A stretch of DNA of 64,000 nucleotides from an uncultured bacterium (GTDB taxonomy: Bacteria > Omnitrophota > Omnitrophia > Omnitrophales > Aquincolibacteriaceae): NCBI GenBank assembly GCA_964434115.1, contig CAYSSX010000005.1, positions 31,063-95,062 of the forward strand, read 5' to 3'. The stretch's first letter is position 1. Each line of letters begins with the position of its first letter. A program made the position numbers and the translations under genes. Below, piece by piece: positions 1-23,502 of the stretch. The notes beneath the pieces are model-generated. The model was not told the origin of the DNA, did no database searches, and worked only from the letters and a program-made list of their open reading frames with translations.

Positions 1-12
1 CAAAAAATTGAA

Positions 13-732
13 TCATTTAGATACCCCGTTAGGGATGATGATATTTTTCGGATTGATCGAAAGACGGTATTGCTTCCGCCCGTTCGATTCAATCAAGTCC
101 TTTGGATTTTTCTTCAACAAATATCCTCCCAGCGCACTCCGCAGACGGCTAAACGGCTGATACCCATCTGAGCGAATAATTCCATTAGACTGCAAATCCT
201 GAATATAAACCCAGCCCGCTTCCGTTTGCTTCATTTCATGCGCCAGATGGTAAAGCAATTTGTAAAGAGCATCCGGCAGCATCAGCTTGTCGCCATTGAT
301 GCTGACATTGGGTTCTCCCGGAAGGGCATGAGCGAAGAACGCCATCGTGTCTTTGCACTTGTATTTTTCAACGTGATATTCTACCTCTGCCTCGGCAATC
401 TGGGAGAATGATTTTTTCTCGAAAAAGTCATGGATCGTAACCACATGAGCCCTGGTATTCGGCACCCGGGAATGCTTTAGCACCAGCTTCAAGTCCGCCT
501 TGTCTTGTAGGATCTCCAAGTCTTCCAGGCTATCGCCGTAACTTTTTTGGATCGCCTGAATTATCTTTTCATTGACCCCCAAATTTCTTAACAAGGCAGT
601 ATCCATCACACTGACCTCCTCTTTTAGCCAGGAGATCCGCTTCGGGGTAGCGTCTCTCAAAATGAGAGGGGCTGTTTCCACTGGATCGTTCCACAGGTGT
701 TCATTTATAAATTCGCACGAATGACTCCGCAA
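13..732 (-). CDS. hypothetical protein immediately downstream of lexA, likely co-transcribed; ORF overlaps lexA 3' end, true start may be internal
   Basis: 239-aa ORF co-directional with lexA and overlapping its stop by 28 nt. No recognisable P-loop or catalytic motif. Function unknown. Confidence 0.4.
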   Translation of the reverse strand: MRSHSCEFINEHLWNDPVETAPLILRDATPKRISWLKEEVSVMDTALLRNLGVNEKIIQAIQKSYGDSLEDLEILQDKADLKLVLKHSRVPNTRAHVVTIHDFFEKKSFSQIAEAEVEYHVEKYKCKDTMAFFAHALPGEPNVSINGDKLMLPDALYKLLYHLAHEMKQTEAGWVYIQDLQSNGIIRSDGYQPFSRLRSALGGYLLKKNPKDLIESNGRKQYRLSINPKNIIIPNGVSK

Positions 733-1331
733 ACCTTTCCGACAACCGCAAAGTTCTGATGCGGTTTGACGGTAATCGTTTTAAATGCGTCGTTCTCCGG
801 TTTAAGCTCGATGTGTCCACGGCGCTTGTAAAACCGTTTTACGGTAGCTTCGTCTTCGATCATGCAGACCGCGATTTCTCCGTTATGGCATTCCCTCTGC
901 GGAGCCACAACTACCATGTCGCCATCTAAAATATGCGCATTGACCATACTGTTGCCTTTGACGCGCAATAAAAAGGCATCTTTCGCCTTTGCGAAAGACC
1001 GGTCAACGTGCAAATAACCTTCTCGGTTTTCTTCCGCGAGGATGGGGCTACCCGCTGCTACCTGGCCGATAATGGGTAACCGGATCGTTTCGCAGTTATC
1101 AACCTCGATTCCTGCCTGATCCAGAACCTCGATATCCCTGGCTTTTGGACTTCTTTTGATATAACCCTTTTTCTGTAAGACACTTAGGTAGTCTTGAACC
1201 GTGCCTATGGCCTTAAAATCAAAATGTTCCTGGATCTCCTGAAGGGAAGGAGCCCCGCCCCTTTTGGATTTTGTTTTGATAATAAAGCCCAGCACGTCTT
1301 TTTGATTAGATGTTAATTCGGGTTTCAACAT
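705..1331 (-). CDS. lexA: LexA repressor (SOS regulator, S24 peptidase)
   Basis: N-terminal LexA-type winged helix (SNQKDVLGFI...LQEIQEHF). C-terminal S24 autopeptidase with catalytic Ser in the GNSM motif and a downstream Lys (VKRF). The A-G cleavage site lies in QVAAGSPI. The ORF track starts at a TTG at 1367, but the in-frame ATG at 1331 (MLKPEL) gives the canonical length of about 208 aa. Confidence 0.85.
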   Translation of the reverse strand: MLKPELTSNQKDVLGFIIKTKSKRGGAPSLQEIQEHFDFKAIGTVQDYLSVLQKKGYIKRSPKARDIEVLDQAGIEVDNCETIRLPIIGQVAAGSPILAEENREGYLHVDRSFAKAKDAFLLRVKGNSMVNAHILDGDMVVVAPQRECHNGEIAVCMIEDEATVKRFYKRRGHIELKPENDAFKTITVKPHQNFAVVGKVCGVIRANL

Positions 1332-1341
1332 AAACAGAAAG

Positions 1342-1363
1342 ATACCATAAAAATTTATGGTAT
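1342..1363. promoter_or_regulatory. candidate LexA operator (SOS box): perfect palindrome ATACCATAAA-AA-TTTATGGTAT
   Basis: Two 10-bp perfect inverted arms separated by 2 nt, sitting 11 bp upstream of the proposed lexA ATG. This position is typical for an autoregulatory operator. Confidence 0.45.
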
Positions 1364-1367
1364 TCAA

Positions 1368-2114
1368 TTAATTTTTGCTAAAGTAGCTTTTTCCTCCCTG
1401 CAAGGCCTCCAAAGTCTTGTGATCTCCGATGTCATACCAGTTCCCGAGGATTGGATATGCACGGACAAACATATTTTCCGAAAGCCATTTCACAAAATAT
1501 CCAATCTGATCCATCGGAAGATTTTGCTCTTTGTATTTTGAAATCATTTTTTGGTGTTCAAGTGGGAGATAGTAAAGCCCAATGCTGGCAAGCGTGCTTT
1601 GTGGCTCCTTGGGCTTTTCTTCAAACCACATCACCTTCCCGTGATCACTCACATCCACAATGCCGTATTGCGAAGCAAGTGTTTTGCTGCCGACATTGTG
1701 AACAGCGATCACTGGTTCCCGCTGAAGGCTGCTGAAAAGAACAAAATAGCTGAGGTTGAAATCAAAATAGTTGTCTCCCGCGATGATCAACAAATCATCC
1801 GGTTCGGGATCGGAATCGAGCGCAAAGAAAAGATCCCCAATCGCCCCGCGCCGATCCTTTTCATTTTTTGAACCGTCATTCAGAATTTCAATGAACTGCT
1901 CATAACCATACCAGGCCCGCCACTGCAAAAAATCCTCGTAGAACTTGTCATTGGTAACAATTTGGATTTTGAAGACCGATGGCAGCGTCACAAGCTGATC
2001 AACGAGGTGTTCAACAATGGGCTTCCCTTTGACCTCCAGAAGAGGTTTTGCCTTGTGGAGCGTCAGAGGATAGAGACGGGTGGCGTAGCCTGCGCAAAGA
2101 ATGATGACCTTCAT
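1368..2114 (-). CDS. sugar-phosphate nucleotidyltransferase (NDP-sugar pyrophosphorylase family)
   Basis: N-terminal ILCAGYATRLYPLT signature of the NTP_transferase fold. About 248 aa. Confidence 0.7.
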   Translation of the reverse strand: MKVIILCAGYATRLYPLTLHKAKPLLEVKGKPIVEHLVDQLVTLPSVFKIQIVTNDKFYEDFLQWRAWYGYEQFIEILNDGSKNEKDRRGAIGDLFFALDSDPEPDDLLIIAGDNYFDFNLSYFVLFSSLQREPVIAVHNVGSKTLASQYGIVDVSDHGKVMWFEEKPKEPQSTLASIGLYYLPLEHQKMISKYKEQNLPMDQIGYFVKWLSENMFVRAYPILGNWYDIGDHKTLEALQGGKSYFSKN

Positions 2115-2139
2115 GGTGCCTCCTGTGTGGGATGTGGGA

Positions 2140-3123
2140 TTAAAAAAGAATTCGAGTTACGATTTTCTGAAGGAGATTGCGTTTCTTGCCCGAATGAATC
2201 ACTGCGTAGGCCTTCATGCCGGGAGTGAGTGAAACATCACCCTGGATTTCCAAAGTGATTCTGACCACATTCTTTTTCAGCCAGATTCGCTCCACCTCTT
2301 CTTCGACTTTGGAATCCATTTTTAAAACGCGGGCTTTATAGGTTTTAAGCGGGCTGGAGTAAAACCTGATTCTGGCACCGGCTCCCGGCCAAACATGAGC
2401 CGCCTGATCTTCAGTGACCAGAATCTCGACGCTCAAATCCTTACTGGCGAGCTTGATCAGCTCCGCCCCTTCGAGAAGCATTTTTCCGAGCTTGTCCTTC
2501 AAGCCGGACAAGATGAATCCATCTGCCGGAGCGGTGATCAAATTTTTCGCCCGAAGGTTTTTAAGGTAATCGATTTTTGACGAGACCTTTTCCTTTTCTT
2601 TCAGAAGAATCGCCAGATGCTGTTGCGCAAGCGTCAGTTTTTCTTCCGCCTCATTCTTTTCAGAAAGAGCGATGCTCCCGACCTCATAATAAAGTCTGCT
2701 TTTTTCCGCTTTGGCCGTCTGAGCTTTCAACTCGGCCTCTGCACCCAAAATTTTCGTGGAAACAATTTCCTGTTCTTTTTCAAATTGCTCCAGCTCAGAA
2801 GAAAGTTTTTCGCTTTTGATTTTTAAAATGGCGTCACCTGCTTTAACCGCCATGCCTTCCGATGAGTAAATCTCCTCGATCTTGCTTTCAAAAGGCGCGT
2901 CCACGGCGTATACAACTGCCGGGACAGTCTTCCCGGACGCCTTAACCGTCACGCTCATAGGAAAGAAAAGAACCAAAAATGATGCGCCGACAAAAAGTCC
3001 GTTCAGAGTCCAAACCTTCCGGCAGGACATTTTTTTGATTTCTTTTTCAGTGAAAAGATTGGGCGGGACACTCGGTCTGCCGTAATGCGCTTTGGGTTTC
3101 TGCTTTTGATCTGTATTTTGCAT
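2140..3123 (-). CDS. HlyD-family membrane fusion / periplasmic adaptor protein
   Basis: One N-terminal transmembrane segment, a long coiled-coil, and an ITAPADGFI beta-strand motif typical of HlyD-type membrane fusion proteins. Confidence 0.7.
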   Translation of the reverse strand: MQNTDQKQKPKAHYGRPSVPPNLFTEKEIKKMSCRKVWTLNGLFVGASFLVLFFPMSVTVKASGKTVPAVVYAVDAPFESKIEEIYSSEGMAVKAGDAILKIKSEKLSSELEQFEKEQEIVSTKILGAEAELKAQTAKAEKSRLYYEVGSIALSEKNEAEEKLTLAQQHLAILLKEKEKVSSKIDYLKNLRAKNLITAPADGFILSGLKDKLGKMLLEGAELIKLASKDLSVEILVTEDQAAHVWPGAGARIRFYSSPLKTYKARVLKMDSKVEEEVERIWLKKNVVRITLEIQGDVSLTPGMKAYAVIHSGKKRNLLQKIVTRILF

Positions 3124-3132
3124 TGAATCCTC

Positions 3133-4680
3133 CTAGATGAGCCAAGACTTGCCAGCGGGTTTTGCCGTCCAATAAACGACCGGGATTGACAGTGTGAAAC
3201 TTAAAAGCAGCGGGAACGAGAGAAGAAGCCATTCATTTGAAAGTTTAAGCCCATAGAAAATCCCGATGATTCCAAGCGCTGTTGTCGGCCAGAGGTTTTC
3301 AGCTACCTGCCTGAAAGTAACCGTGCTAAACGGATCTTTTTTCATAGGTTTCCAGACAAGCCCCTCGAACGGCAGCGACAAAATATCAACCGTCTGGTAA
3401 TAGACGTTATTAAGGGAAATCAGCGTTGAGAACACCAGCTCGATCAGAATGTCTTTCAATTTGAACCGTTTCAGCAGGACAAACTTGTGCCCGTAAATCG
3501 CCAGCATGGTCAGGATCAATCCAATGAGAAGTTCCTGCCGCATATAAGGCGACAAGAATAAAGTGTTATTGGATTTGAAAATCAAGTGATGCGTAGCGCG
3601 GATGTCCGCAAGAAATGCGTTCAGCACCAGCCACAGACCAAGCACAAGATGAGAAATGTAAACGTAGATTCCGTAGAAAACAAAAAGCCGTGTCTCAGGA
3701 GAAACCCCGCGTTTAAATATCAAAGGCCATGACTGAAGCGTGCCCTTGGCCCATCTCTTATCCCGGGCCCGCGCCTCAAGATAATTTGCCGGTGCTTCGT
3801 CCCAGGTTTTTACGTCATGGCAAAAAGCAATCCGCTTGCCCATTACATCAAGGTAAGTCGTATCCCAAATGTCATGGCTCATAATGCCCTTGGGAATTTT
3901 GACGCGAATGAAGTCTTTGGAGCGGATCAGGCAGAGATGCCCAAAAGAAATCTGCCGTCCGAAGAGTTCTTGAAGCGTCTTGAAATAAAGCTCTTGGGAA
4001 AGTCTCGCGCCAATAGATTGAATCTTGGCGAAGCGAGTCTTGGCATGTGTGATTTTGATAAACGTCTGAAAAAGAGAAATATCCCGATTTTCAGGATGCT
4101 CGGCTTTTTTAAGAAGTTTCAGCAATGTCCCTTTCGGAGCCATGCTGTCCGCGTCACAAACCATGAAGTATTTGTAATAGAGATGTTCGACCAGCCAGCT
4201 TAGGACGTTTCCTTGCTTGCGTTCGGTAGGTTTAGGCCGGTTGCGATAAAAAACTCGCTCTGAACCAAACTTACTTCGCAAGTCGGCGACAAGCTTCTGT
4301 TCCATTTCCAAAAAATCTTTGTCCGTATCGCTCAGTATCCACAGATCCACGCCGGGCAGATTATTGTTCCCGAATGTGTAGGAGATTCTTTCGAACATTC
4401 CGACCGTCTCATTTTTGAGCGGATAAATGATGGCGGTCTTTGGAATATACGGGACATAGGTTTCCTTAAGCGGCTTCGGATCAAGGATCAGATAAAAAGC
4501 ACTGGCCAGAAACATATAGATCACGTTGAAGATCAAAAACGAGAATCCTGTCAGCCATAACCACGCAACCCAGGAGCTGCTTAGCTGGAAGGCAATCGCA
4601 TCAAAGGCCGTGTAAACAGCGATGGCCCAAATTCCAAAAAGCAGGCCGAAATAAATCCTCCGAAGAAAAGGTTTATTCAT
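3133..4680 (-). CDS. processive family-2 glycosyltransferase, OpgH/MdoH-like glucan synthase
   Basis: Transmembrane helices flank a GT-A catalytic core. Motifs YRNRPKPTERKQGNV (R..N..KAGN-like), CDADS (the DxD motif), SHD, and ARDKRWAKGTLQ (the Q/RxxRW processivity motif). Shorter than E. coli OpgH, which is about 850 aa. Confidence 0.7.
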   Translation of the reverse strand: MNKPFLRRIYFGLLFGIWAIAVYTAFDAIAFQLSSSWVAWLWLTGFSFLIFNVIYMFLASAFYLILDPKPLKETYVPYIPKTAIIYPLKNETVGMFERISYTFGNNNLPGVDLWILSDTDKDFLEMEQKLVADLRSKFGSERVFYRNRPKPTERKQGNVLSWLVEHLYYKYFMVCDADSMAPKGTLLKLLKKAEHPENRDISLFQTFIKITHAKTRFAKIQSIGARLSQELYFKTLQELFGRQISFGHLCLIRSKDFIRVKIPKGIMSHDIWDTTYLDVMGKRIAFCHDVKTWDEAPANYLEARARDKRWAKGTLQSWPLIFKRGVSPETRLFVFYGIYVYISHLVLGLWLVLNAFLADIRATHHLIFKSNNTLFLSPYMRQELLIGLILTMLAIYGHKFVLLKRFKLKDILIELVFSTLISLNNVYYQTVDILSLPFEGLVWKPMKKDPFSTVTFRQVAENLWPTTALGIIGIFYGLKLSNEWLLLSFPLLLSFTLSIPVVYWTAKPAGKSWLI

Positions 4681-6109
4681 TGCCGGTCTCCGCCCCTACC
4701 GACTCGGCAAGACGCTGGGTTTCCGCCTGAATAATCCAGTAATCGCAGACCGCTTTTGCAACCTCCGTCTGGGCTTGAAGCAGCTGAATCTTTGCTTCGT
4801 TTATGGCGAGGTCTGAAACATCGCCCTGCATGTGCTTTGCCTTGGCGTTTTTAAAGTTTTCTTCCGCCATCTTCAGCGTCTGCTGTGAAATGGAGATCGT
4901 CTTCGCTCTTACAGAGAGCGCGTTGAAGGATTTTTTAAGTTCAAGCTTCGCGGTTTTAATTTCGGAGTCCTTCTTAAGCTGTTGCTCAGTCAAAATGGAG
5001 CGTTTTTCCCGGATGTCATTTGAAGTCTGGCTAAAATCCCAGACATTGAACTGCACCATGACACCGGCCTCCAGAGCATTTTTCTCATAAAAAGACTCTT
5101 CTTCCCGACGATAGCGGGAGACCAGAAAAGCTTTGGGCCAGCGGCGGGATTTTGCGATTCTCAAATCCTGTTCGGCGGCGGCTATTTCACGATCCAACTT
5201 CCTGACAAGAGGATGATTTTGGATCTCGCTTGATGAGAGGTTCGTTTCAGGCAGGGCTTCAGGCAGATCCTCCAAAACATAAGAAGGCTGAGAATCAATG
5301 CCGGTGATTTGAATCAAGAAATCATAGAGATACTGAAGATGCTGCTCTTTCTCGATAAGAGCCTTTTCCTTTTCCGCCGCATCAGCCACTCTCTTCAGCA
5401 AGATAGACTGCGTCTGGTAATCTTTCTCCGTGAGTTTTTGCTCAACATCTCTGAGCTTTTTGGCATGAATCAATTCTTCTTCGAGGAGTTTTACTTCAAC
5501 TTCCGCCTTCTTGATTTCAAAGAACACCCGCTTTACGGCATAAACAACGTCCGTCCTCTTCAAATCGCTCTCGCTTGAAGCGATCCCTTCCTGCGCTTCC
5601 GACTTCCTTTTGCGAGCCAGCAGTTCACCGCCAAGAAACAAGGGCTGCATAGCCTTCACATCAAACGTAAACACCGGTTGATCTGTTGAAAGAGCACCAT
5701 AAGCAGAGCTTGAAAGCGATGGAAGCATGGCTCCCTTTGCGAAATTCTTTTTGAATCTCGACTGATCAATATGCAGCGCTGAAATTTTTAAAGACGAGTT
5801 GTGTTCAAGAGCCGATTCAACGCATTTGTCCAGGGTGAGAATGGCCACGGTTTCTGCGCTGGCTTGAGAGGCAAGCATCATCAGGAGGGTAAATATGCAG
5901 GCGAGTTTACGAACGCGGGGAGATTTACGGATGGGCTTGATGATAATTTCGAACGGATTGTCCGTATTCTGGTTAAGCCGCTCAAAGAACTTGTTCACAT
6001 TCCTGCAATTCGGAAAATTCATCAGAAAGAATCCTGAATGCAGAAGATTCATCATCCATTGCTTGTTGCTGTCTCCGCCCCAGACCATATTGACCTTGAA
6101 TTTCCGCAT
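4673..6109 (-). CDS. TolC-like outer membrane efflux factor
   Basis: Strong signal peptide (KSPRVRKLACIFTLLMMLASQASA) followed by a coiled-coil-rich TolC-like body. The annotated ORF begins about 60 codons upstream of the signal peptide, so the true start is probably internal and non-ATG. Confidence 0.65.
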   Translation of the reverse strand: MRKFKVNMVWGGDSNKQWMMNLLHSGFFLMNFPNCRNVNKFFERLNQNTDNPFEIIIKPIRKSPRVRKLACIFTLLMMLASQASAETVAILTLDKCVESALEHNSSLKISALHIDQSRFKKNFAKGAMLPSLSSSAYGALSTDQPVFTFDVKAMQPLFLGGELLARKRKSEAQEGIASSESDLKRTDVVYAVKRVFFEIKKAEVEVKLLEEELIHAKKLRDVEQKLTEKDYQTQSILLKRVADAAEKEKALIEKEQHLQYLYDFLIQITGIDSQPSYVLEDLPEALPETNLSSSEIQNHPLVRKLDREIAAAEQDLRIAKSRRWPKAFLVSRYRREEESFYEKNALEAGVMVQFNVWDFSQTSNDIREKRSILTEQQLKKDSEIKTAKLELKKSFNALSVRAKTISISQQTLKMAEENFKNAKAKHMQGDVSDLAINEAKIQLLQAQTEVAKAVCDYWIIQAETQRLAESVGAETGNE

Positions 6110-6136
6110 AGCTGCCTCCGTATTTTTTCATGTTCG

Positions 6137-6718
6137 TTAGCAGCTCTGGGCTGTCGCGGTAATTTCATCTATCAGCAGAACCCCTTCTTTTGGAACGCTG
6201 AAAACATCATCAAAAGAAAGCGTTATTTCCCGAATATCTGACCAGTCCCGGATTCTGTTGAATCGCTTGATGGGGATTTCAAACCGCTTCCAGCTTTTTC
6301 CGATTCCAGACAGAATGTAAGAGGATCGGCGGCGTTGTCCGTCCGTGATCTGAAGAGTGACATTTTTAGACCCGCCTGCCAGCGGGTCCGCCTTGATGAA
6401 GAACTGAAGAGTCTGAAATGACGAAAAATCTTTTTGATCCGGTAAAAACCAAAAGTCCACGCGAGCAGATTCAGCAGAATCGACATCATAAATCAACATG
6501 AGGGAACGCCCATGCTGTTGGCTCAATGCGTCATCCTGTGAAAGTTCTGCACGGATGTCTTGCCCGTCATCCATGACATTTTTAACTGAAACTCCCGACC
6601 GCCCTGAAAGCGGCTGGTCAAAGTTCTCGATAACGACCTCTTTGACACAGGAATTGCTTGCGAATGCTTCTCCGAATCCAAAGACAAGCCAAAAGCCCAA
6701 CAAAAAAACACACACCAT
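6137..6718 (-). CDS. secreted beta-sandwich protein (CBM11/CIA30-like guess)
   Basis: Signal peptide with a Cys close to the cleavage region, and a size of 193 aa consistent with a single beta-sandwich. Last gene of the glycan module. The fold call is weak. Confidence 0.35.
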   Translation of the reverse strand: MVCVFLLGFWLVFGFGEAFASNSCVKEVVIENFDQPLSGRSGVSVKNVMDDGQDIRAELSQDDALSQQHGRSLMLIYDVDSAESARVDFWFLPDQKDFSSFQTLQFFIKADPLAGGSKNVTLQITDGQRRRSSYILSGIGKSWKRFEIPIKRFNRIRDWSDIREITLSFDDVFSVPKEGVLLIDEITATAQSC

Positions 6719-6767
6719 GCGCGGGTTATCCTGTTTGGAGGATTAAAGCTTCTGGAGCTTTGAGGGA

Positions 6768-7661
6768 TTAAACGTTATCCAGCAAAAGAATGAGAATCGG
6801 CGTATAGGCTTCCACGCTGATAGACTTCTCAATCTTAACTCGATTCAATGCTTCTTGCGCATCGTCCGCGAGATTACGGGATGCGTTCAAACGCAGTTCG
6901 TCTTCCAGCGAAATGGGCCCGCTGCGCCGGGTTCCTAAGACAAGAGAAGCGCCTGATAAAAGCATCTCTCCGCTGGCTTTTAAGATAGATCTGTCGTATT
7001 GCTTATCCACCTTTCCTTTGACTCCGCCCGAACCGTCCAGGCTTAAAGCCATTGCCCGAATTCGGGATTCTTTGCCGTCCGGCATGACCATCACAGAGAA
7101 TTTGATATTCACTCGGTCTCTGCTTTGGACAATCCCGGCTTCACCAATGAACTGCGTTCCTTTGGGAATAACGGTTATTCCATCCCGGACAAAATCTTCA
7201 TCGGTTACAGCAATTACAGGACTGGTTACGTTAAAAGAAAATATGGCGTTGGCTAGGTGTGCTTTGATTTTCACACCGGTTGGAACCCCCAGCTCTCGGC
7301 TTTTCTTCGTATTCGCCTTGGCGCTATCTTCTTTTTCTTCTTCTTTCACATACACAGCAATTTCTGCGTTCAGCTTTCTTTTCGGTGCCTGTGTTTTCAG
7401 ATCATGCTTCACGATTTCCTGTTTTCCGACTTCCAGCAGCTGCTCTTTAATGATGCTCTCGATCTCCGCCTTCGAATACACCCCTTTTGACTCTGCGGCC
7501 TGTGTCTTTACAACACTTTCTTTTCTTCTAGCCGCGTTATCAAGACTGACAAAAAGAAAGGCCAGCAAACAAAAAAGCGCCGCCCCGGCCAGAAAGATTT
7601 TTTTATTCTTGCCCGGCAACGGCTCTTTCTTTTGGAAGAAAGCTTTCGGTTCTTCGCTCAT
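6768..7661 (-). CDS. trbI: conjugal transfer protein TrbI/VirB10
   Basis: One N-terminal transmembrane segment, a Lys/Glu-rich linker, and a C-terminal TrbI domain (GITVIPKGTQFIGEAG...MPDGKESRIRA...LDGSGGVKGKVDKQYD). Confidence 0.7.
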   Translation of the reverse strand: MSEEPKAFFQKKEPLPGKNKKIFLAGAALFCLLAFLFVSLDNAARRKESVVKTQAAESKGVYSKAEIESIIKEQLLEVGKQEIVKHDLKTQAPKRKLNAEIAVYVKEEEKEDSAKANTKKSRELGVPTGVKIKAHLANAIFSFNVTSPVIAVTDEDFVRDGITVIPKGTQFIGEAGIVQSRDRVNIKFSVMVMPDGKESRIRAMALSLDGSGGVKGKVDKQYDRSILKASGEMLLSGASLVLGTRRSGPISLEDELRLNASRNLADDAQEALNRVKIEKSISVEAYTPILILLLDNV

Positions 7662-7663
7662 GA

Positions 7664-8608
7664 TTACTGCGCCTCCACGGGAATATCCTTGAGGATCAAG
7701 GAGCGGTTATTTCCTTTTTCATAGACCTTAATGACAAAGCGCTCATTTTTCTTGAGATACTGCTTTTCAAAGCTGATCAGCCCGTAATGGTAGCTGTTCT
7801 TTAAGAACCTGCTGTCCGCGTTGACCGAAATATCCACCGGCACAAAGCTTTCTTGCCGCATGGCAAGGCCGCTGCGCCGCAACGTCTCTTTTCCGGCCAC
7901 AACCCTCTCAAGCTCATAATCCTTGTCCGAATAATTCAGGACGCTAAACCGCAAGTAACTGACCCCGCCGATTTCTGTCAAAGAAAGCAGGTTCACCTGG
8001 ATGCCATTATCTTTCTCAGAGATTTTGAGACGTTTTGTTAAAGCGCCTTTCTTGATTTCCTCTTCAAATTTTTCATGTGTGAGTTTCTTAACCGTTTCCG
8101 TCTGCTTTTCTTCCTTTTCCTGAAATTGTTCCTGGAGCTCGGATTTCTTTGCTTCAAGTTTCGCTTTGAATTCGTTCTGCACCATTGCCTCATCACTCGG
8201 GAACCGGAAGTCCAAAACAAAGTCCGCCGTTTCGGGAGATCCGACCGTCACATCAAAGCTCAAGCGGCTCGATTGCGTGTAGATCGTGAGATTGCTTCGG
8301 GCATCCGTGTAGTCCGTCGCGGGTTTGATAACGACTTGAGATCCGTAGACTTCCACCTTGAAAAGTTCCGCATCACCGATAAAGACTTTTAGCGCCTCTT
8401 CGGGCAGATCAATAGTTGTGATGTAACCAATAGCGGTTTGAAGACGATAGGCCACGCCCGTCTTGGTTGTGAGCTTGTAGATATTGGCCGTAGTCCGGGC
8501 CAGCTTGTTTTGCTTCTGCCGTTCGATCATGGCCGCATTTTCTTCAGCCTGGGCAGAGCCCGCTTGAACGCAAAAAATAAGAAGCGCAAGTATCCATTGA
8601 AGAACCAT
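7664..8608 (-). CDS. trbG: conjugal transfer protein TrbG/VirB9-like
   Basis: Signal peptide, about 300 aa, and a position between the VirB8-like and VirB10-like genes. Confidence 0.55.
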   Translation of the reverse strand: MVLQWILALLIFCVQAGSAQAEENAAMIERQKQNKLARTTANIYKLTTKTGVAYRLQTAIGYITTIDLPEEALKVFIGDAELFKVEVYGSQVVIKPATDYTDARSNLTIYTQSSRLSFDVTVGSPETADFVLDFRFPSDEAMVQNEFKAKLEAKKSELQEQFQEKEEKQTETVKKLTHEKFEEEIKKGALTKRLKISEKDNGIQVNLLSLTEIGGVSYLRFSVLNYSDKDYELERVVAGKETLRRSGLAMRQESFVPVDISVNADSRFLKNSYHYGLISFEKQYLKKNERFVIKVYEKGNNRSLILKDIPVEAQ

Positions 8609-8619
8609 AAGGAGACCTC

Positions 8620-9249
8620 CTATTTATCAATCTGTTTGACCAGAACTTCCCGGTATTCATCTACGAGAAGTCCGTGAGGGTTTGCCATCGTGCGGGGAAC
8701 CTTTTTTAGAATGACATCGCCTTTGAATAGGCTTTCCTCTTTGAAGTCCCGGTTTTGATAACTCGAAATTGTCCGCAGTCCCAAGAGGGACAGCACCGCG
8801 TAACTCTCATCCTCCCGCTCGACCTTGATCTCCCGGATTTCAACATTGGTGTTGATGGAGGCCTGACTGATTTTTGAGATCAGATTGGAATCAATGACCT
8901 CTCGCTTTGCCACTTTCTGAAAGTTCGCTGTCATTAAGCCGAAGGATTCAGGAATTTCTGATGAAACCGTGTAGGAGTTGTAGCCCGTAAACTTTTTCAC
9001 AAAGAATTTTGCAAAAAAGAAAAGCTCCGGCTGCGTGACCGCATTGTTGATGCGGTAATCGGGAACAGGTTCCGCGTTGCCAATGTCGGAAACCCGGATA
9101 ACCACCGGCGGCCTCAAGCTGCTTAGGTAAATAAAGCAAAGTGAAACCGCCAGAAGAGAGAAGCAGGCAATCAGAAGAGTTTTAAGGGTATTATTTTGCG
9201 CTTCGAGATCGCCCCAGACTTCAAAGTATTTGCGTTTGATATTTTCCAT
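8620..9249 (-). CDS. trbF: conjugal transfer protein TrbF/VirB8-like
   Basis: A single N-terminal transmembrane segment followed by a periplasmic domain of about 150 aa. Size and position are typical for VirB8. Confidence 0.5.
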   Translation of the reverse strand: MENIKRKYFEVWGDLEAQNNTLKTLLIACFSLLAVSLCFIYLSSLRPPVVIRVSDIGNAEPVPDYRINNAVTQPELFFFAKFFVKKFTGYNSYTVSSEIPESFGLMTANFQKVAKREVIDSNLISKISQASINTNVEIREIKVEREDESYAVLSLLGLRTISSYQNRDFKEESLFKGDVILKKVPRTMANPHGLLVDEYREVLVKQIDK

Positions 9250-9255
9250 GTTTCC

Positions 9256-10110
9256 TCACTGAATGGAGTTCGTTTGATCCTGCAAGGCCTGCCGGTTTTT
9301 CAGGTTTTCAATCGCTTTCCCGGGCTGGACTTTGCGAAGCAGCGTATAAGTCGCAGACGTTGCGACGCCGATCATGGTAGAGCCGATATTCCCAATGCTT
9401 CCTTCGGACAAAAGACTTGCGGTAATCGCCGGAGTAAAAACAAACAGAAGAACAAAAAGCACATTCGCCGTGATAATTGAAATGGTGTTGACGTGCTCAA
9501 TGTTGTAGATCGCCGTAAGATTCATGTAGCTGGCAATGCGAACCAGAAGAGAAAGCGTCACGACCCAGGCTGAGACTTGGAATAAGGATTTCAGCCATGC
9601 GTTTAAGGCGCCGGATGTCTTGTAATAAATACCGAACACGATCAAGATAGGGCCGGAGATATAGATCAGTGAAAGAAGCATGAAGCGCAGCCAAATCAGA
9701 ACCGTGTAGGCAATGTAAGTCAGCACATAAGTGACGTAAGTAATACTGTTAAGCAAAGCGCCTTTGAACAAATTGAAGACGCCAAAATCTTTATTTTCTT
9801 TGATCTCTGTGAAGATTGTCTTCAAGACATTCTGAAACTCTTCTTCCGGCATGATCGTTTTGCTCAAAAGATCAGTGCCGTAAGTCACCACCACAAAGAA
9901 CCTGTCATAAATAATCAAAAGCCCGAGAATCATTAACACCCGGACAAACAGGCCGGTGTAATTGCCGCGATCTTCGATCTGCATGAAGTTTTCATGCACC
10001 ATTGCGATTACCATCACCGGCAGAACCAGAATAAAGGCCGTCTGACGCAAGGACAGAAAAAGCGTTTCAAAGAGAGACGGGATTTGAAGAGCGTTTGTGA
10101 ATAATGTCAT
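9256..10110 (-). CDS. trbL: conjugal transfer protein TrbL/VirB6-like polytopic membrane protein
   Basis: At least five hydrophobic helices, and a position following the VirB5-like gene. Confidence 0.55.
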   Translation of the reverse strand: MTLFTNALQIPSLFETLFLSLRQTAFILVLPVMVIAMVHENFMQIEDRGNYTGLFVRVLMILGLLIIYDRFFVVVTYGTDLLSKTIMPEEEFQNVLKTIFTEIKENKDFGVFNLFKGALLNSITYVTYVLTYIAYTVLIWLRFMLLSLIYISGPILIVFGIYYKTSGALNAWLKSLFQVSAWVVTLSLLVRIASYMNLTAIYNIEHVNTISIITANVLFVLLFVFTPAITASLLSEGSIGNIGSTMIGVATSATYTLLRKVQPGKAIENLKNRQALQDQTNSIQ

Positions 10111-10113
10111 GGT

Positions 10114-10875
10114 TCACCTCGAAGGAAGAGCGTCAAGAAGCCGATTGAATTCCCGCATGAATTTCAGTCTTTCCCGTTCCATGTATTTTTCTTCGCGGGA
10201 AACCTGCTCAATCTGTGTAGCTCCAATCTCAATCAACTTGGATTGGTTTTGTTGAATCTGTGCCTGGGTAACAAGAATTTTTCCAAGCGCGTCTGCCGTA
10301 AGTCTCGCTGCCCCTTTCGGGGAAGCGGTCTGCGCGGCTCTGGAAATGTCTTCACCTGCGTCAACGGTTGAATCAACGACTTTTCGGACTTCACTTGCCC
10401 AGCGGTATCCGTCTGCTGCAAAAACTTCCTCCTGTGTGATGTAAGGCTTTGTCGCGGAACGCGGATCTTCACCGAAAATTTCATTCAAATGCGCCCGGTA
10501 GTCCGAATCACTTCCAAGCGGCCCGCCGTTTACAAGCGCATAAAAATCCCGTTGTGCCTGACTCAGCTCATAACCCAAATTCGTAAGATTGAAAGACCCG
10601 TAACGGGAGATCAGCCGCTTGTAGTCGCCGACAAATAAACCCCGGATTTCATCAAATCCGCTGTTGAATCTTTGAAGTTCATCAAAGGTGCGGCGGAGTT
10701 CAAAGAGTTGATCCAAAGCATTCTTGATGTCTTCAAGGTGATAAACCTCCATCAACGTATTTCTGATCTGGTTGTAGAGCCCATTTACCGGATCATGCAC
10801 AACAAGGGTGGCCTGAGCGGAGGCCGTGAGAGCCGTCACGGTGATGAACACCATCACAAAATGCCTTAAAGCTCT
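10114..10875 (-). CDS. trbJ: TrbJ/VirB5-like minor pilus / entry-exclusion-associated protein
   Basis: Signal peptide beginning at MRALRHF... and a predicted coiled-coil. The gene sits immediately downstream of the VirB4 homologue. Confidence 0.45.
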   Translation of the reverse strand, partial: RALRHFVMVFITVTALTASAQATLVVHDPVNGLYNQIRNTLMEVYHLEDIKNALDQLFELRRTFDELQRFNSGFDEIRGLFVGDYKRLISRYGSFNLTNLGYELSQAQRDFYALVNGGPLGSDSDYRAHLNEIFGEDPRSATKPYITQEEVFAADGYRWASEVRKVVDSTVDAGEDISRAAQTASPKGAARLTADALGKILVTQAQIQQNQSKLIEIGATQIEQVSREEKYMERERLKFMREFNRLLDALPSR

Positions 10876-10962
10876 CATGGTAGGAGGCCTCCATATCTCA
10901 GGGTTAAAAGGAGCATTGCCAGTAAAGTGGCTGCCATGCAAAGGACGGCAAGGACGGGGTTG

Positions 10963-13440
10963 TCATCTTGCCGGGGCATGGCTCACTGCTCCTTTGGGGA
11001 AGTTTTCTGCCAGATACTTCAACAAACCGAACGCATCCAGATTGGGGTTTTTGCGCCGCGCATCCTGTTCCAATGCGTAGTCACCCGGATCGGTTGTGGC
11101 GATCCAGTATTCAAGCGGTGTGGGTTCAATCCTTCCGACCGTTGAATCATTTCCGTATTTGATAAGAGCTTCCGAAAACATTCCCGGCCTTGAGACCAAA
11201 GATTTCACCGCGTCAATTTCGGTGTCGCTCAGCTCGAATCGGGAAAGAAGCTCGTGCCCTTTGTTGAGCTTAAGAACATACTTCGTGAACGAATTGCTGA
11301 TGACGGCATTGGCCGCTTTAGTGTTCAGAAAATCTTCCGGGCTTTGCGAGATGCTCAAGACAAGCCCATTAAACTTTCTGGCTGTCCTGTAAAGGTCTTC
11401 AATGAGCCGGGCGCTTGTTTCATCATTGAAAAAGCGCCAGCCTTCATCAATCACGATCACTTTTTTATTCGCTTTCTGGTAGAGCTTGCCGGCAATAGCA
11501 GAACGGATGATGAAAAAGATCAGCGATTGCAAATCGGGGTAGCTGTCAAGCTTGCCTAATTCAAAAACGATGAGGCGGTTATTCGCGTTGATATTCCCGT
11601 GCCGGTTCAGCAACTTTCCATAACGTCCTTCCGCCCAAATGCTCAAATTTTTTCCAAACTCCAGTGCCTTTTGTTTCTCCGCAGCATCTTCAAAAGAGTG
11701 CGTCCTGAAAACCTGAAGCAAATCCGTCAGCAGCGGCGCACTTTTCGTTTCATAAACCTTAAGCAGCGCTTTTTCGATCAGCCTTTTGTGGGCATTCGTT
11801 AAGACTTCTTCAGCGTGACCCCGCACAAGTTTTTCGGTGATCAGCGCTAGGTAAGCCAGGTTGTCGTTATTAATTTCTCCATTGGCGATAACCGCTTCCT
11901 TGGGGAGCAGCGGATTGATCGCATAGTTTTCACCCAGATCAATGTCGAAGTAGGCGCCCTTAAAAAACGAAGTCAGACGGCGGTAAGAATTTCCAACGTC
12001 AATAATCACAAGCTGGTTGTATCTGTTTTCGAGGAGATAATTCATCAGCAGATAATTCGTTGCGAAAGACTTGCCTGATCCGGTCGCTCCCATGATGATT
12101 CCGTGCTTTGCCGGAAGCCCGTTCTCAAAAAGATCCAGTTTCAACAACTCCTGCTTGCGGGATTTCAGCAAAAAGCCTGCTTTTTCCGTGCCTCTCCAGT
12201 CGCTCTGAATGGGCACGAGGTTCGCAAGCGCATCGCTCTGGATGAGATACCTTCTCGGGTTCATCCAAGCCTGCCCGGGCAAAAAGGAAAGGAACAGCCG
12301 GTCATGATTCATGTGATCTGCTATCCCTTCAGAGCTGGCGAGCGCCGGGAAAGCGTCCACGATCTGATCCTGCTTGCGCTTGAGGAAATAGAAGTTCCGG
12401 TCGCGCACAAGAAACGAAAGTGAGTAATACACAAGCTTTTGGGAAGACGATTTAATTTCGGTAATCAGCGAATCAATTTCGCTGTATTTCTGAGCGGAGT
12501 CATAGTTTTTGGAGCTTCCTAAAAAGCTAAACGTCTTTGATACATTCGCCCGCGTCTTCAAAGACTCGATTTCGGCCTCGTTGTCCGGCACATAAATCGA
12601 AAGCATGAAGTCATAGGGAACCGTGATCTTCTCAAGCATCCTGCCCAAGCCCTGAATTTCAGTGTGTTCAGGCGGCAGTAGCAAATTGATCCCTTGGAAA
12701 AAATACCCGTCCTGGTAAATGTGCTCATGTTCCACAATCGGCGGAGAAAAGAGCAGAGACGAACGCAGCGTAATGCTCTGCGCTGGATTTTCCTCTGAAT
12801 TGACTAAAGGGGCTTTACTCGCCCTGGCCGGGTTGAGGTGAAAGTAAAAGAATGTTTTATATTCTTTTTCTTTCAAGGGCGTCATTTTTACCTTGAGATT
12901 GCCGAAGGCATTTTCAAGGTAGGTTTTTGCAGAAAGCAGCTCCTGCTTTCTGGCAAGAAACGCCTCTTTATTGATTTCAACTGCTTTTTTCCGAAAGACT
13001 TCCAGCCCGGAAGTCAGTTTGTGTTTTTCTTCATGAAATTTGGTGATGAAGAGATAAAGTTCGCTGTTAAAAAGCGCATCTTTCCGCAACGCCACTTCTT
13101 TTGTCTCGATCAGTGCCGTTGAAAAAGCATCCGCCGTCCGAATTGACCGGCGGTAATCAAAAAGCGCCCGTCCCGGGCCCGGCTTATGCTTCAGAATGAA
13201 CTGAAACTGTGTCTTCTCGGGAAGATGTCCAAGCGCCTGACGTAGAAACTCCACCACCGAAATGATTTCCTGTTTGGATTTGAACATCAAATTGATACCT
13301 TCAAACGTAAAACCCAGCGTAAGATTGCCTGTCGCGCCGATCAAAACATCATCTTCAATCGCAAGCAAATCAATCTGGTTGTAAAAAGGGACTTCCCGGC
13401 GAGCCTGGAGAATGTCCCGGATGCGAATCGGTGAAATCAT
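10963..13440 (-). CDS. trbE: type IV secretion ATPase TrbE/VirB4
   Basis: 825 aa. Walker A motif GATGSGKS, and Walker B hhhhDE (VIVIDEGW). Confidence 0.9.
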   Translation of the reverse strand: MISPIRIRDILQARREVPFYNQIDLLAIEDDVLIGATGNLTLGFTFEGINLMFKSKQEIISVVEFLRQALGHLPEKTQFQFILKHKPGPGRALFDYRRSIRTADAFSTALIETKEVALRKDALFNSELYLFITKFHEEKHKLTSGLEVFRKKAVEINKEAFLARKQELLSAKTYLENAFGNLKVKMTPLKEKEYKTFFYFHLNPARASKAPLVNSEENPAQSITLRSSLLFSPPIVEHEHIYQDGYFFQGINLLLPPEHTEIQGLGRMLEKITVPYDFMLSIYVPDNEAEIESLKTRANVSKTFSFLGSSKNYDSAQKYSEIDSLITEIKSSSQKLVYYSLSFLVRDRNFYFLKRKQDQIVDAFPALASSEGIADHMNHDRLFLSFLPGQAWMNPRRYLIQSDALANLVPIQSDWRGTEKAGFLLKSRKQELLKLDLFENGLPAKHGIIMGATGSGKSFATNYLLMNYLLENRYNQLVIIDVGNSYRRLTSFFKGAYFDIDLGENYAINPLLPKEAVIANGEINNDNLAYLALITEKLVRGHAEEVLTNAHKRLIEKALLKVYETKSAPLLTDLLQVFRTHSFEDAAEKQKALEFGKNLSIWAEGRYGKLLNRHGNINANNRLIVFELGKLDSYPDLQSLIFFIIRSAIAGKLYQKANKKVIVIDEGWRFFNDETSARLIEDLYRTARKFNGLVLSISQSPEDFLNTKAANAVISNSFTKYVLKLNKGHELLSRFELSDTEIDAVKSLVSRPGMFSEALIKYGNDSTVGRIEPTPLEYWIATTDPGDYALEQDARRKNPNLDAFGLLKYLAENFPKGAVSHAPAR

Positions 13441-13703
13441 TGTTCTTCTCTCCCCGTTAAAGTGTAAAACTTAGGCGTAAGCAGAAACCGGACGAGCATC
13501 GTCGTGTATTTAGGCGGTTTGCCTTTTTTGTAAATTCGCAAAAGGCAGTAAACCGCTGTTACCGCTGCCAGATTCAGAAAAATGTTGGCTGAAAGCATGA
13601 AAACCAGCGCATACACAACCGCGATGATCAGAAAATCGAGGACTTCCAGTCCGAAGACCTTCTCGTTTTTCTCAAGGGACGTATGTGTTTTGACCGGTTT
13701 CAT
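13437..13703 (-). CDS. trbD: TrbD/VirB3-like small membrane protein
   Basis: 88 aa with a hydrophobic hairpin. Its stop overlaps the VirB4 start, and this coupling is conserved for VirB3-VirB4 pairs. Confidence 0.5.
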   Translation of the reverse strand: MKPVKTHTSLEKNEKVFGLEVLDFLIIAVVYALVFMLSANIFLNLAAVTAVYCLLRIYKKGKPPKYTTMLVRFLLTPKFYTLTGREEQ

Positions 13704-13704
13704 T

Positions 13705-14004
13705 TCAAAACCCCGTAAGCCGTTGAATGAGATCCAGAATTGCCCGCGCCATCATGATGATTGCACCGCCGAGTGCGGCAAAGACGCCCCGTCGAAGCCC
13801 CATTTCATTGCCAGTTGCCATGCTGATGCCTCCGATACAAACTCCGATCACAAGAATTCCGGGCCCGATGATTCGAATCAAAAAATCCGCAATCCCTTCT
13901 AAGAACTCTTCAAGCTGGCTTTCAGAATCAGAGAAAGCCCAGGCACACGCCGCCCGCATCAGGACAAAGCAAATAATCAAAAGCCACATTTTCTTGCGCA
14001 TCAT
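13705..14004 (-). CDS. trbC: TrbC/VirB2-like pilin
   Basis: About 100 aa. Signal peptide (MMRKKMWLLIICFVLMRAACAWA) followed by two hydrophobic helices rich in Gly, Ala and Ile. Confidence 0.5.
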   Translation of the reverse strand: MMRKKMWLLIICFVLMRAACAWAFSDSESQLEEFLEGIADFLIRIIGPGILVIGVCIGGISMATGNEMGLRRGVFAALGGAIIMMARAILDLIQRLTGF

Positions 14005-14036
14005 CGAAAACTCCTCTCGTATACAAAGGTGCACTT

Positions 14037-14366
14037 TCAGGGGTTTTTATAGCCGTCACTTAAAAAATTCTTCAGTTTCTTCTTCCCGGATTGAATGTGC
14101 TGAAAAACCGTGGGCTGGCTCAGCTTGAACATGGCCGAAATTTCAGTCTCCGAATAGCCGTCAATATGTTTCAGGGAAAAACAAAGCCGCTGGCGTTCGG
14201 TCAGGGTGCTCAAAGCCGCGTCCATGTCCATCCAGAAGACCAGAGCATCCCACTCCCGCACGGAAAGAATCCTCTCCCGGATAGAGGTCTCGAATTTTGA
14301 CAAGTGTTTACCGTTCTCGACGTTGTGGAAATCAACGCTGATCAGTTTTTTCCGTCTTTTCTTCAT
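14037..14366 (-). CDS. small sigma-70 region-4-like HTH regulator
   Basis: LTERQRLCFSLKHIDGYSETEISAMFKLSQPTVFQHIQSGKKKL resembles sigma-70 region 4.2 / ECF sigma C-terminal HTH. No region 2 is present. Confidence 0.45.
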   Translation of the reverse strand: MKKRRKKLISVDFHNVENGKHLSKFETSIRERILSVREWDALVFWMDMDAALSTLTERQRLCFSLKHIDGYSETEISAMFKLSQPTVFQHIQSGKKKLKNFLSDGYKNP

Positions 14367-14380
14367 GGCTATCCTTTCCT

Positions 14381-14418
14381 GAAAATAAAAAAGCCCGAAA
14401 GAGATAACTCCTTCGGGC
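14381..14418 (-). terminator. rho-independent terminator or attenuator after the coupling-protein gene
   Basis: On the minus strand, a GCCCGAA...TTCGGGC stem with a 12-nt loop is followed by TTTTTTATTTT. Confidence 0.5.
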
Positions 14419-14451
14419 CTCTATGGGTCTCTGGTTGTAAAAAAAACAGGG

Positions 14452-16787: not shown

Positions 16788-16801
16788 TTTCCTCCTGTTT
16801 T

Positions 16802-16893: not shown

Positions 16894-16941
16894 GTTGTGA
16901 ATGAATACCGCCCCACCGGATTTGTGTGGTGTCAGTGCTCC

Positions 16942-23471: not shown

Positions 23472-23502
23472 ATATCGCTCTTAATAACATGGCAGAGGAG
23501 AG

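Follow-up and report, generated by a model that had tools for sequence, protein, structure and literature searches.

A predicted glucan synthesis and export cassette behind the type IV secretion genes of an Omnitrophota mobile element

The 64,000-nt window analysed here (contig CAYSSX010000005.1, from an uncultured Omnitrophota bacterium) contains a cassette of five genes at positions 1368-6718, located directly behind the structural genes of a type IV secretion system (T4SS) on an integrated mobile element. All coordinates are positions in the window, and all cassette genes lie on the minus strand (Table 1). In the order of transcription, they encode a small secreted protein (p193), a TolC-family protein, a glycosyltransferase of family GT2, a HlyD-type adaptor, and a nucleotidyltransferase. 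An earlier note on this DNA had listed five open reading frames (ORFs) on the strand of the T4SS genes, 50 nt from the trbI stop, with the glycosyltransferase flanked by adaptor and TolC-like genes and accompanied by a nucleotidyltransferase and a secreted beta-sandwich protein. All five ORFs are present, the gap from the VirB10/TrbI stop to p193 measures 49 nt, and the proposed functions agree with the Pfam matches of the adaptor, the TolC-family protein, and the nucleotidyltransferase and with the signal peptide and CBM11-like fold of p193.

Table 1. Coordinates of the cassette genes, the T4SS genes, and other features in the window
Feature	Position	Strand	Basis or remark
p193, secreted CBM11-like beta-sandwich, candidate glucan-binding protein	6137-6718	-	193 aa; signal-like N-terminus, CBM_11 family matches, fold
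TolC-family outer-membrane factor	4673-6109	-	Pfam OEP 7e-37, two repeats
Predicted OpgH-like processive membrane GT2 synthase, 515 aa	3133-4680	-	MdoH models, hhalign, fold
HlyD-type membrane fusion protein (periplasmic adaptor)	2140-3123	-	Pfam HlyD_D23 2.5e-11, HlyD_3 5e-8
Sugar-1-phosphate nucleotidyltransferase, RmlA/GalU superfamily	1368-2114	-	Pfam NTP_transferase 2e-29
VirB10/TrbI	6768-7661	-	Pfam TrbI 1.6e-12; last gene of T4SS structural block
VirB9	7664-8608	-	Pfam/NCBIfam
VirB8-like	8620-9249	-	Weak match in relative L006
VirB6	9256-10110	-	Pfam/NCBIfam
275-aa ORF without family assignment	10114-10941	-	Between VirB6 and VirB4
VirB4	10963-13440	-	Pfam/NCBIfam
VirB3/TraL-like	13437-13703	-	Weak TraL match
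VirB2	13705-14034	-	Pfam/NCBIfam
Sigma-70-region-4-like protein, 109 aa	14037-14366	-	Pfam/NCBIfam
VirD4-type coupling protein	14452-16089	-	Pfam/NCBIfam
Element-borne, full-length LexA, after the cassette	705-1367 (probable start ATG 1331)	-	TIGR00498 200 bits, cut-off 111
Type III restriction-modification Res	17992-21018		Divergent from T4SS operon
Type III restriction-modification Mod	21000-23471		Divergent from T4SS operon
SIR2-like + HerA pair	23503-26563		Divergent from T4SS operon
PD-(D/E)XK nuclease	26775-27542		Divergent from T4SS operon
Large serine recombinase	27615-29357	+	Resolvase, Recombinase, Zn_ribbon_recom domains
tRNA-Asn	29316-29391	-	Right end of element

Successive cassette genes are separated by 27, -8, 9, and 25 nt, with an 8-nt overlap of the TolC-family stop and the GT2 start, and GGAGG-type ribosome-binding sites precede the TolC-family, adaptor, and nucleotidyltransferase genes. 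The T4SS genes from 14366 downward are separated by -4 to 21 nt. The sole strong minus-strand terminator in 18 kb was identified at 14389-14422, between the coupling-protein and sigma-like genes, and a terminator scan found no convincing terminator from VirB2 to the nucleotidyltransferase gene. From the small gaps and the lack of a convincing terminator after 14389-14422, we infer a single long operon running from ~14366 to 1368, with the cassette co-transcribed as its distal part. A sigma-70 promoter scan was uninformative (4 sites compared with 18 expected by chance). The gene at the head of the VirB2-to-cassette string, which has this strong intrinsic terminator directly upstream, encodes a 109-aa protein consisting of sigma-70 region 4 alone and is kept in all close relatives.

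All nine NCBIfam matches of the GT2 protein are to MdoH/OpgH models, the best reaching 164 bits (cut-off of that model, 419). In an hhalign comparison with Escherichia coli OpgH (847 aa; probability 99.9, 26% identity), the alignment covers only OpgH residues 238-725, indicating that the GT2 is shorter at both ends. The earlier note had described the GT2 as much shorter than its E. coli counterpart and as carrying motifs of the OpgH/cellulose-synthase type, and both descriptions hold: the protein has 515 aa and lacks ~235 N-terminal and ~120 C-terminal residues of OpgH, and the SDTD (4321-4332), KQGN (4207-4218), DAD (4147-4155), SHD (3871-3879), and RDKRW (3751-3765) motifs are all present. 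As SD.D, K.GN, DAD, SHD, and RD.RW, they are invariant in 24 family members and align to the E. coli OpgH motifs, in keeping with a catalytically competent enzyme. The AlphaFold2 (AF2) model of the GT2 (mean predicted local distance difference test score, pLDDT, 90.7) comprises two N-terminal and several C-terminal transmembrane (TM) helices around a GT-A domain. Its best fold match in the PDB, by Foldseek, is the cyclic beta-1,2-glucan synthase Cgs (8RF0; E 6e-18, TMq 0.75), a match that spans ~16% of the target length (TMt 0.16); BcsA (~0.6) and the hyaluronan synthases (HAS) come next, and CesA was also matched. The fit of the model to processive synthases extends over the full length of the protein and takes in the TM region, and this agreement with Cgs, BcsA, and HAS leads us to predict that the GT2 is a channel-forming processive synthase. 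By both sequence and fold, it is nearest to two known beta-1,2-glucan synthases, OpgH and Cgs. Neither the GT2 nor the adaptor nor the TolC-family protein had a match in PDB sequence searches, so that fold and profile comparisons alone are informative for these proteins.

A word-indexed search of 5.8 billion proteins identified ~33 relatives of the GT2 at 32% identity or more, below which OpgH-like proteins follow at ~27%. A phmmer search against 1.84 billion representatives gave only 44 matches at E <= 1e-30; nearly all full-length matches are 485-550 aa long, and OpgH-like proteins of 600-850 aa start at ~1e-29 to 1e-27. By these comparisons, the GT2 belongs to a small family that is distinct from OpgH and forms a sister, adaptor-coupled clade. 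The earlier note had left room for the GT2 to group with a well-characterised family that has an unrelated export route; the nearest family is OpgH, at ~27% identity, and the GT2 stands apart from it in this separate clade. Two further candidates were rejected. Control by cyclic di-GMP (c-di-GMP) through PilZ was discarded since neither a PilZ nor another c-di-GMP-binding domain was detected in the GT2 or the adaptor with Pfam and NCBIfam, and a GT21 glycolipid function was discarded since the Glyco_transf_21 match is weak (3e-5) and the MdoH models score far higher.

The surroundings of the synthase were compared in 52 genomic loci and several metagenomic contigs that contain GT2 relatives (56 distinct loci), annotated by profiles built from the window proteins; neighbour counts cover the loci with enough flanking sequence. 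An adaptor gene adjoins the GT2 gene in all 44 loci, downstream in 41 and upstream in three, the two adaptors from Rudaea being without the alpha-hairpin. In 32 of 39 loci, the gene immediately upstream of that for the GT2 is of the TolC family, and a nucleotidyltransferase gene follows the adaptor gene in 29 of 41. Nearly all of these loci are from metagenome-assembled genomes (MAGs) of Candidatus Omnitrophota, and a few are from Elusimicrobia, Verrucomicrobiota, and the cultured gammaproteobacterium Rudaea. On an Elusimicrobia chromosome, the genes occur in the order TolC-adaptor-GT2-GT2 with no T4SS nearby, which argues that the synthase, adaptor, and TolC-family protein form an autonomous module. 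No inner-membrane ABC, RND, or MFS transporter is encoded in the cassette, where the GT2 gene sits between the TolC-family and adaptor genes. These counts and the T4SS-free triad support the description of the cassette as a self-contained synthase-plus-export machine, as originally put forward.

The adaptor, whose HlyD_D23 and HlyD_3 matches exceed the Pfam cut-offs, has one N-terminal TM segment (residues 37-55) and an alpha-hairpin whose tip is encoded at 2668-2703. Across 52 adaptors, the tip follows the consensus R-x3-L-x6-[G/S/A], the R being kept in 38 and the L in 42 of them. The RLS motif is the site by which AcrA, MacA, and HlyD dock onto TolC (PMC3391258), and the hairpin tip of the family matches this motif, pointing to a putative docking function. 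The TolC-family protein matched TIGR01844 at 86 bits, below the cut-off; its gene is present and overlaps that of the GT2, and it is predicted to be required for export. The nearest solved relatives of the nucleotidyltransferase are RmlA glucose-1-phosphate thymidylyltransferases (1e-13), and the enzyme is presumed to supply nucleoside diphosphate glucose (NDP-glucose). In the window's subclade, the TolC-family protein carries a 65-aa N-terminal extension (5915-6109) before the signal-like hydrophobic segment, which is lacking in the homologues of loci L003, L006, L011, and L072. This extension appears to be translated, because it shows coding constraint in comparison with locus L001 (rate of nonsynonymous substitution, dN, 0.11; that of synonymous substitution, dS, saturated) and because a GGAGG Shine-Dalgarno sequence precedes ATG 6109.

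p193 begins with a signal-like hydrophobic segment. Pfam CBM_11 was matched by 7 of 13 members of its family (best 1.8e-7). This family comprises at least 1218 proteins, which are ~200 aa long, come mainly from Omnitrophota, and in many cases carry the annotation PF03425 (CBM_11). The top Foldseek match of its AF2 model (pLDDT 87.9) in the PDB is CtCBM11 of C. thermocellum (1v0a/6r3m; E 2e-10, TMt 0.71). With domain calls based on a clean p193 profile, p193-type proteins or domains were found directly upstream of the GT2 gene in L008, a locus without a T4SS, as parts of the GH144/GH189-like proteins of two other T4SS-free loci (L055 and L030), and downstream of the nucleotidyltransferase gene in many T4SS-linked loci. 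Their recurrence in these three settings, with or without a T4SS, suggests that p193 is a recurrent accessory of the synthase, and it probably binds the glucan. In the T4SS-free Omnitrophota locus L044 (12765-21374), a protein of more than 2870 aa with RHS repeats and weak CBM11-like segments is encoded directly after GT2-adaptor. In the large T4SS-linked clade, the slot that p193 occupies in the window, between VirB10 and the TolC-family gene, holds a conserved gene for an 81-94-aa protein (GEELHF..VEV.GK.RGDIRYF; L014 8271-8543, L015 8293-8541, L017 8222-8500, and others) with a weak match to PC4, a single-stranded DNA-binding family (6e-4).

The relatives without a T4SS provide information on the polymer. 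In L055, the gene order TolC-GT2-adaptor is followed directly by a gene for a 626-aa PF10091 protein, which matches the cyclisation region of Cgs (1e-23), the GH189 domain 8WY1 (1e-22), and GH144 beta-1,2-glucanases. In L030, a 1234-aa PF10091 protein is encoded 5 kb downstream and matches the GH144 endo-beta-1,2-glucanase CpSGL (2e-20) and related enzymes. The GH144 and GH189 families act specifically on beta-1,2-glucans (PMC11842490). In Rudaea sp. 3F27F6 (L050, NZ_SCNG01000009.1, 7008-12147), a divergently oriented gene for OpgG (PF04349, 2.8e-173) is found at a distance of ~1.1 kb from a GT2 gene (37% identity at the protein level), and a nucleotidyltransferase gene comes after the GT2 gene; no TolC-family gene is present, and the 237-aa protein encoded before the GT2 matches the adaptor profile in its TM/lipoyl and barrel parts only, the alpha-hairpin being missing. 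The Rudaea locus thus looks like a periplasmic counterpart of the export cassette, in a cultured and experimentally tractable organism. A tblastn search with E. coli MdoG gave no OpgG match in the window, and no MdoG Pfam match was obtained in the Omnitrophota loci, OpgG being seen only beside the Rudaea relative; the claimed absence of OpgG- and OpgD-type partners therefore extends from the window to the Omnitrophota loci. Because of the OpgH homology, the Cgs fold match, and the GH144, GH189, and OpgG neighbours in T4SS-free relatives, the polymer is probably a beta-1,2-glucan made from NDP-glucose. More generally, the GT2 family may make beta-1,2-glucan that is directed outside the cell where a hairpin-bearing adaptor and a TolC-family protein are present and otherwise to the periplasm, as in the osmoregulated periplasmic glucan (OPG) system.

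The association of the cassette with the T4SS was assessed from both sides. On the synthase side, among the Omnitrophota loci with at least 3 kb of upstream sequence, 26 of 34 have the order VirB4 ... VirB9-VirB10-TolC-GT2-adaptor-nucleotidyltransferase, which persists down to 43% GT2 identity and ~35% VirB4 identity. On the T4SS side, a VirB10 alignment was compared with metagenome contigs, yielding 55 informative clusters after de-replication at 97% identity; the cassette directly follows VirB10 in 43 of them and is missing from 12. In a neighbour-joining tree, the T4SS-free GT2 members are basal, and the T4SS-linked members fall in derived clades. Pairwise identities over 15 loci showed that GT2 identity correlates with that of VirB4 (r 0.99; 0.98 within the large clade), VirB9 (r 0.96), VirB10/TrbI (r 0.91), the TolC-family protein (r 0.97), and the adaptor (r 0.94), with a mean identity of 0.54 for GT2 versus 0.50 for VirB4. 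Between the window and the 91%-identical locus L001, dN/dS is 0.03-0.09 for the five cassette genes (0.09 for p193) and 0.04-0.06 for the T4SS genes, ratios that are approximate because dS is saturated but point to purifying selection of equal strength on both sets. The co-divergence with VirB4 down to ~35% identity indicates that the cassette is an ancestral module of this T4SS family, and its absence from 12 of the 55 clusters indicates that it is dispensable for T4SS persistence. By these comparative data, the cassette is not a recent insertion; a family of conjugative elements in Omnitrophota has long inherited it as a module that is under selection but dispensable.

The earlier note had regarded the five genes as possible element cargo in lower-GC DNA. 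In keeping with the first part, the cassette lies in an integrated element and is absent from some T4SS clusters; the label nevertheless understates the age of what appears to be an ancestral module. The GC argument fails: the cassette is not set apart by a GC dip (0.466 versus 0.474 for the T4SS genes), and the element as a whole (1-29300, GC 0.463) is lower than the chromosomal rest of the window (0.527).

Among known systems, OpgH/MdoH of E. coli is the closest in sequence to the GT2, shares its catalytic motifs, and is likewise membrane-embedded, so that a beta-1,2 backbone is likely here too. The GT2 of the window differs in lacking an OpgG/OpgD (GH186) partner in the window and, whereas the product of OpgH is periplasmic, members of its family invariably have a HlyD-type adaptor as partner and, in most cases, a TolC-family channel as well; these partners predict a destination outside the cell. 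The combination of GT2, HlyD-like protein, and TolC is found in the XcsA/XcsB/XcsC cellulose system of Thermosynechococcus and the BgsA/BgsB/TolC mixed-linkage glucan system of Sinorhizobium (PMC13438883, in which the Xcs system is credited to Maeda 2018). The genes of the cassette predict the same tripartite architecture, but its synthase is of the OpgH type rather than the BcsA/BgsA type and matches BcsA in fold less well than Cgs. In addition, the PilZ domain or C-terminal receptor expected for c-di-GMP control in systems of this type is not found in the GT2 or the adaptor, and the cassette clusters all three genes with a nucleotidyltransferase gene inside a T4SS operon on a mobile element. 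In a tblastn search against plasmids (1e-5), no Sinorhizobium record is among the matches listed, a list in which 10 further genera are not itemised. The Cgs/NdvB/ChvB synthases (8RF0) provide the best structural match to the glycosyltransferase and TM core of the GT2. They are, however, proteins of ~2800 aa with a fused GH189 cyclase and GH94 phosphorylase, whereas the GT2 is a bare 515-aa core, and their product reaches the periplasm by a separate ABC transporter, in contrast to the adaptor and TolC route of the cassette. Alginate secretion (Alg8/Alg44/AlgE) and similar synthase-dependent systems for exopolysaccharides combine a GT2 synthase with an exit through the outer membrane and with a partner that spans the periplasm and has a domain resembling membrane fusion proteins. 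The general logic is the same, but the cassette has a TolC-type exit in place of a dedicated porin, no PilZ domain on the adaptor, and no scaffold of periplasmic modifying enzymes.

Taken together, the best explanation of the locus, which we regard as reasonably probable, is that the cassette encodes a self-sufficient, envelope-spanning glucan secretion module and is an ancient, dispensable companion of the T4SS, with a link to DNA transfer as a guess. In this scheme, the nucleotidyltransferase would make NDP-glucose, and the OpgH-like GT2 in the inner membrane would polymerise it, most likely to beta-1,2-glucan, threading the chain through its own channel. The HlyD-type adaptor, anchored by one TM helix, would physically bridge the GT2 to the TolC-family channel via its alpha-hairpin so that the chain leaves the cell, where secreted, CBM11-like p193 would bind the glucan at the surface. 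To these biochemical steps, based on established protein families and on the comparative pattern, we attach fair confidence. The position of the cassette inside the T4SS structural operon and its long-term linkage suggest that the module is probably produced together with the mating apparatus of the integrative and conjugative element (ICE). The biological role is much less certain, and the part in transfer above all is conjectural: our best guess is that the surface or extracellular glucan helps donor and recipient cells stick together. In its strongest form, the exporter would be a working part of the conjugation apparatus, with secreted beta-1,2-glucan, co-expressed with the T4SS, and the CBM11-like lectin forming a matrix or bridge that replaces protein adhesins in the mating-pair stabilisation of ultra-small cells, and transfer would depend on it; we consider this rather unlikely. 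Conjugative elements encode adhesins and aggregation factors, such as the enterococcal aggregation substance and plasmid-borne fimbriae. These are proteins, whereas the cassette, if linked to transfer, would provide a polysaccharide surface product that promotes cell contact.

Several observations weigh against the proposed explanation or parts of it. All nine MdoH cut-offs (328-1131 bits) are unmet by the GT2, so that its product could differ from that of OpgH, and characterised CBM11 modules bind beta-1,4 and mixed-linkage (beta-1,3-1,4) glucans, not beta-1,2-glucans, according to PDB descriptions. At its hairpin tip, the adaptor of the window itself departs from R, L, and S, with K, Y, and A at these positions. 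Of the 12 cassette-less clusters, six belong to the window's own subclade, in which the slot after VirB10 is empty, has a lone adaptor remnant, or is taken by a toxin-antitoxin pair, by an SRAP-like gene, or by a MarR gene with a gene for a 1185-aa transporter/acyltransferase fusion protein; three cassette-less clusters (four loci) keep the nucleotidyltransferase gene only. Co-divergence with VirB4 would also arise if the cassette were inherited jointly with the T4SS as a block of beneficial cargo. The host phylum, Omnitrophota, is uncultivated, and, as reported in PMC10918111, surface capsules shape conjugation and often lower it.

The last points bear on a reading, to which we give a limited but appreciable chance, in which the same machine makes a glucan that benefits the host (as biofilm matrix or as protection from desiccation, phages, or predators) or forms a surface-exclusion coat, with no positive role in mating. 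The cassette-less clusters, the other cargo in the same slot, and the effect of capsules on conjugation agree with this reading, as do the defence cargo on the same element (type III restriction-modification, SIR2-HerA) and the occurrence of the synthase-adaptor(-TolC) set without a T4SS in other lineages. Cargo is, however, normally variable, whereas this cassette is kept after VirB10 down to ~35% VirB4 identity, is as conserved as VirB4, and sits inside the structural operon with tiny gaps. A host-benefit or exclusion coat is as compatible with most of the data as a mating function. The nature of the polymer could also differ, the same tripartite exporter secreting cellulose, a mixed-linkage beta-glucan, or a chain containing GlcNAc. 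The tripartite GT2 systems known so far produce cellulose or mixed-linkage glucan, characterised CBM11 modules bind beta-1,4 and beta-1,3-1,4 chains, the GT2 shares an identity of only 26-28% with OpgH and falls short of the MdoH cut-offs, and the nucleotidyltransferase could be specific for another sugar; but since the GT2 is closer to OpgH in sequence and to Cgs in fold than to BcsA or HAS, and since the neighbours in T4SS-free relatives belong to the beta-1,2-glucan-specific families GH144, GH189, and OpgG/GH186, we judge another polymer decidedly unlikely.

Two further readings dispense with export of the chain through the adaptor and TolC-family protein. In one, which we hold to be very improbable, the GT2 releases beta-1,2-glucan into the periplasm in the manner of the OPG system, perhaps stabilising the T4SS, and the adaptor and TolC-family protein do something else. 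OpgH as the closest family and the Rudaea relative, with its OpgG, hairpin-less adaptor, and lack of a TolC-family gene, are in its favour; moreover, Banta et al. reportedly found in 1998 that Agrobacterium chvB mutants without periplasmic beta-1,2-glucan had unstable VirB10. The Omnitrophota adaptors, however, retain a complete hairpin whose tip is RLS-like, translation of the TolC-family gene is coupled to that of the GT2 gene, the two co-diverge, and OpgG and OpgD are absent from both the window and the Omnitrophota loci. The hairpin of the adaptors and the coupling of the TolC-family gene make a periplasmic glucan that supports the T4SS less likely. In the other, the adaptor and TolC-family protein serve as an outer conduit of the T4SS and the GT2 is a non-processive, GT21-like enzyme that glycosylates a lipid or pilin. 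The location of the genes directly after VirB9 and VirB10 and the weak Glyco_transf_21 match would fit, but the triad occurs without any T4SS, the GT2 model fits channel-forming processive synthases over its whole length, and the MdoH scores are far above that for GT21, which makes this reading extremely improbable.

If the preferred reading of an exported glucan holds, the cassette would represent a third enzyme lineage that uses the combination of synthase, HlyD adaptor, and TolC for export and the first OpgH-type case, suggesting that a periplasmic-glucan synthase can be redirected outward by gaining an alpha-hairpin adaptor. A machine of synthase, adaptor, and TolC is already known; an OpgH-type synthase in this role and its association with a T4SS are new. 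The retention of a polysaccharide secretion module right behind virB10 throughout a family of conjugative elements is previously undescribed; it suggests that a surface glycan takes part in DNA transfer or in the relations between element and host. The literature, in a search of incomplete coverage, gave no precedent for this cassette, for T4SSs or conjugative elements of Omnitrophota, for a polysaccharide synthase-exporter in a T4SS operon, or for mating-pair stabilisation by a polysaccharide. Omnitrophota are ultra-small, possibly host-dependent bacteria whose conjugation has hardly been studied. The proposal is testable: the five genes, with their own sugar-activation step, span 5.4 kb and are expressible in E. 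coli, and specific beta-1,2-glucanases exist.

The T4SS of the window comprises VirB2, 3, 4, 6, 8, 9, and 10 and a VirD4-type coupling protein, VirB8 and VirB3 being assigned from weak matches. VirB11 was not recognised in the window from 1 to 17700, and neither the scanned ORFs of the window nor the Pfam annotations of related loci include a relaxase, the element being cut at the left window edge so that its left end lies outside the window. A defence island occupies 17992-27542. The recombinase ORF overlaps the 3' end of tRNA-Asn, on the opposite strand, by ~40 nt, and this junction is likely to be the attachment site of the element; beyond it lie the genes for FtsK, dUTPase, PNPase, RibF, TruB, IF-2, NusA, and ATP synthase. 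The serine recombinase abutting tRNA-Asn, the housekeeping genes beyond it, and the shift in GC content indicate that the cassette is carried by a T4SS-bearing integrated element, probably an ICE. In the large clade, a serine or tyrosine recombinase marks the end of the elements.

Some single Omnitrophota MAGs contain two to four loci with T4SS and cassette, partly from different subclades (JAZDJU01, L023/L031/L036/L049; CAISGE01, L017/L018/L033/L058; CAYLXA01, L035/L045), reflecting either several elements per small genome or mixed bins. Typical Omnitrophota-type cassettes were also found in bins assigned to Actinomycetota (L012) and Desulfobacterales (L024), either through mis-binning or through transfer of the element across phyla. 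Within the window's subclade, L006 (12641-16692) and L077 (8048-12098) carry a MarR gene and a gene for a protein of ~1185 aa after VirB10 or after the adaptor gene. The L006 protein is a fusion of an MFS transporter with acyltransferase and AMP-binding domains, resembling a lysophospholipid transporter/acyl-ACP synthetase, and the L077 protein was matched to it by size and position. Besides the 275-aa ORF, three conserved ORFs of the window have no family assignment, namely those for a 233-aa protein (16086-16787), a 166-aa protein (17144-17644), and p239 (13-732); members of the window's subclade retain p239 adjacent to the cassette or to LexA. Positions 1342-1363, downstream of the nucleotidyltransferase gene and before the probable start of lexA, form a perfect palindrome, ATACCATAAA-AA-TTTATGGTAT. 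Control of the T4SS/cassette operon by LexA is unsupported, as the palindrome occurs only once in the window. The motif TACCAT-N8-ATGGTA is conserved upstream of lexA in L001, L003/L042, and L064-L068, and the palindrome is a candidate LexA auto-operator of an uncharacterised phylum.

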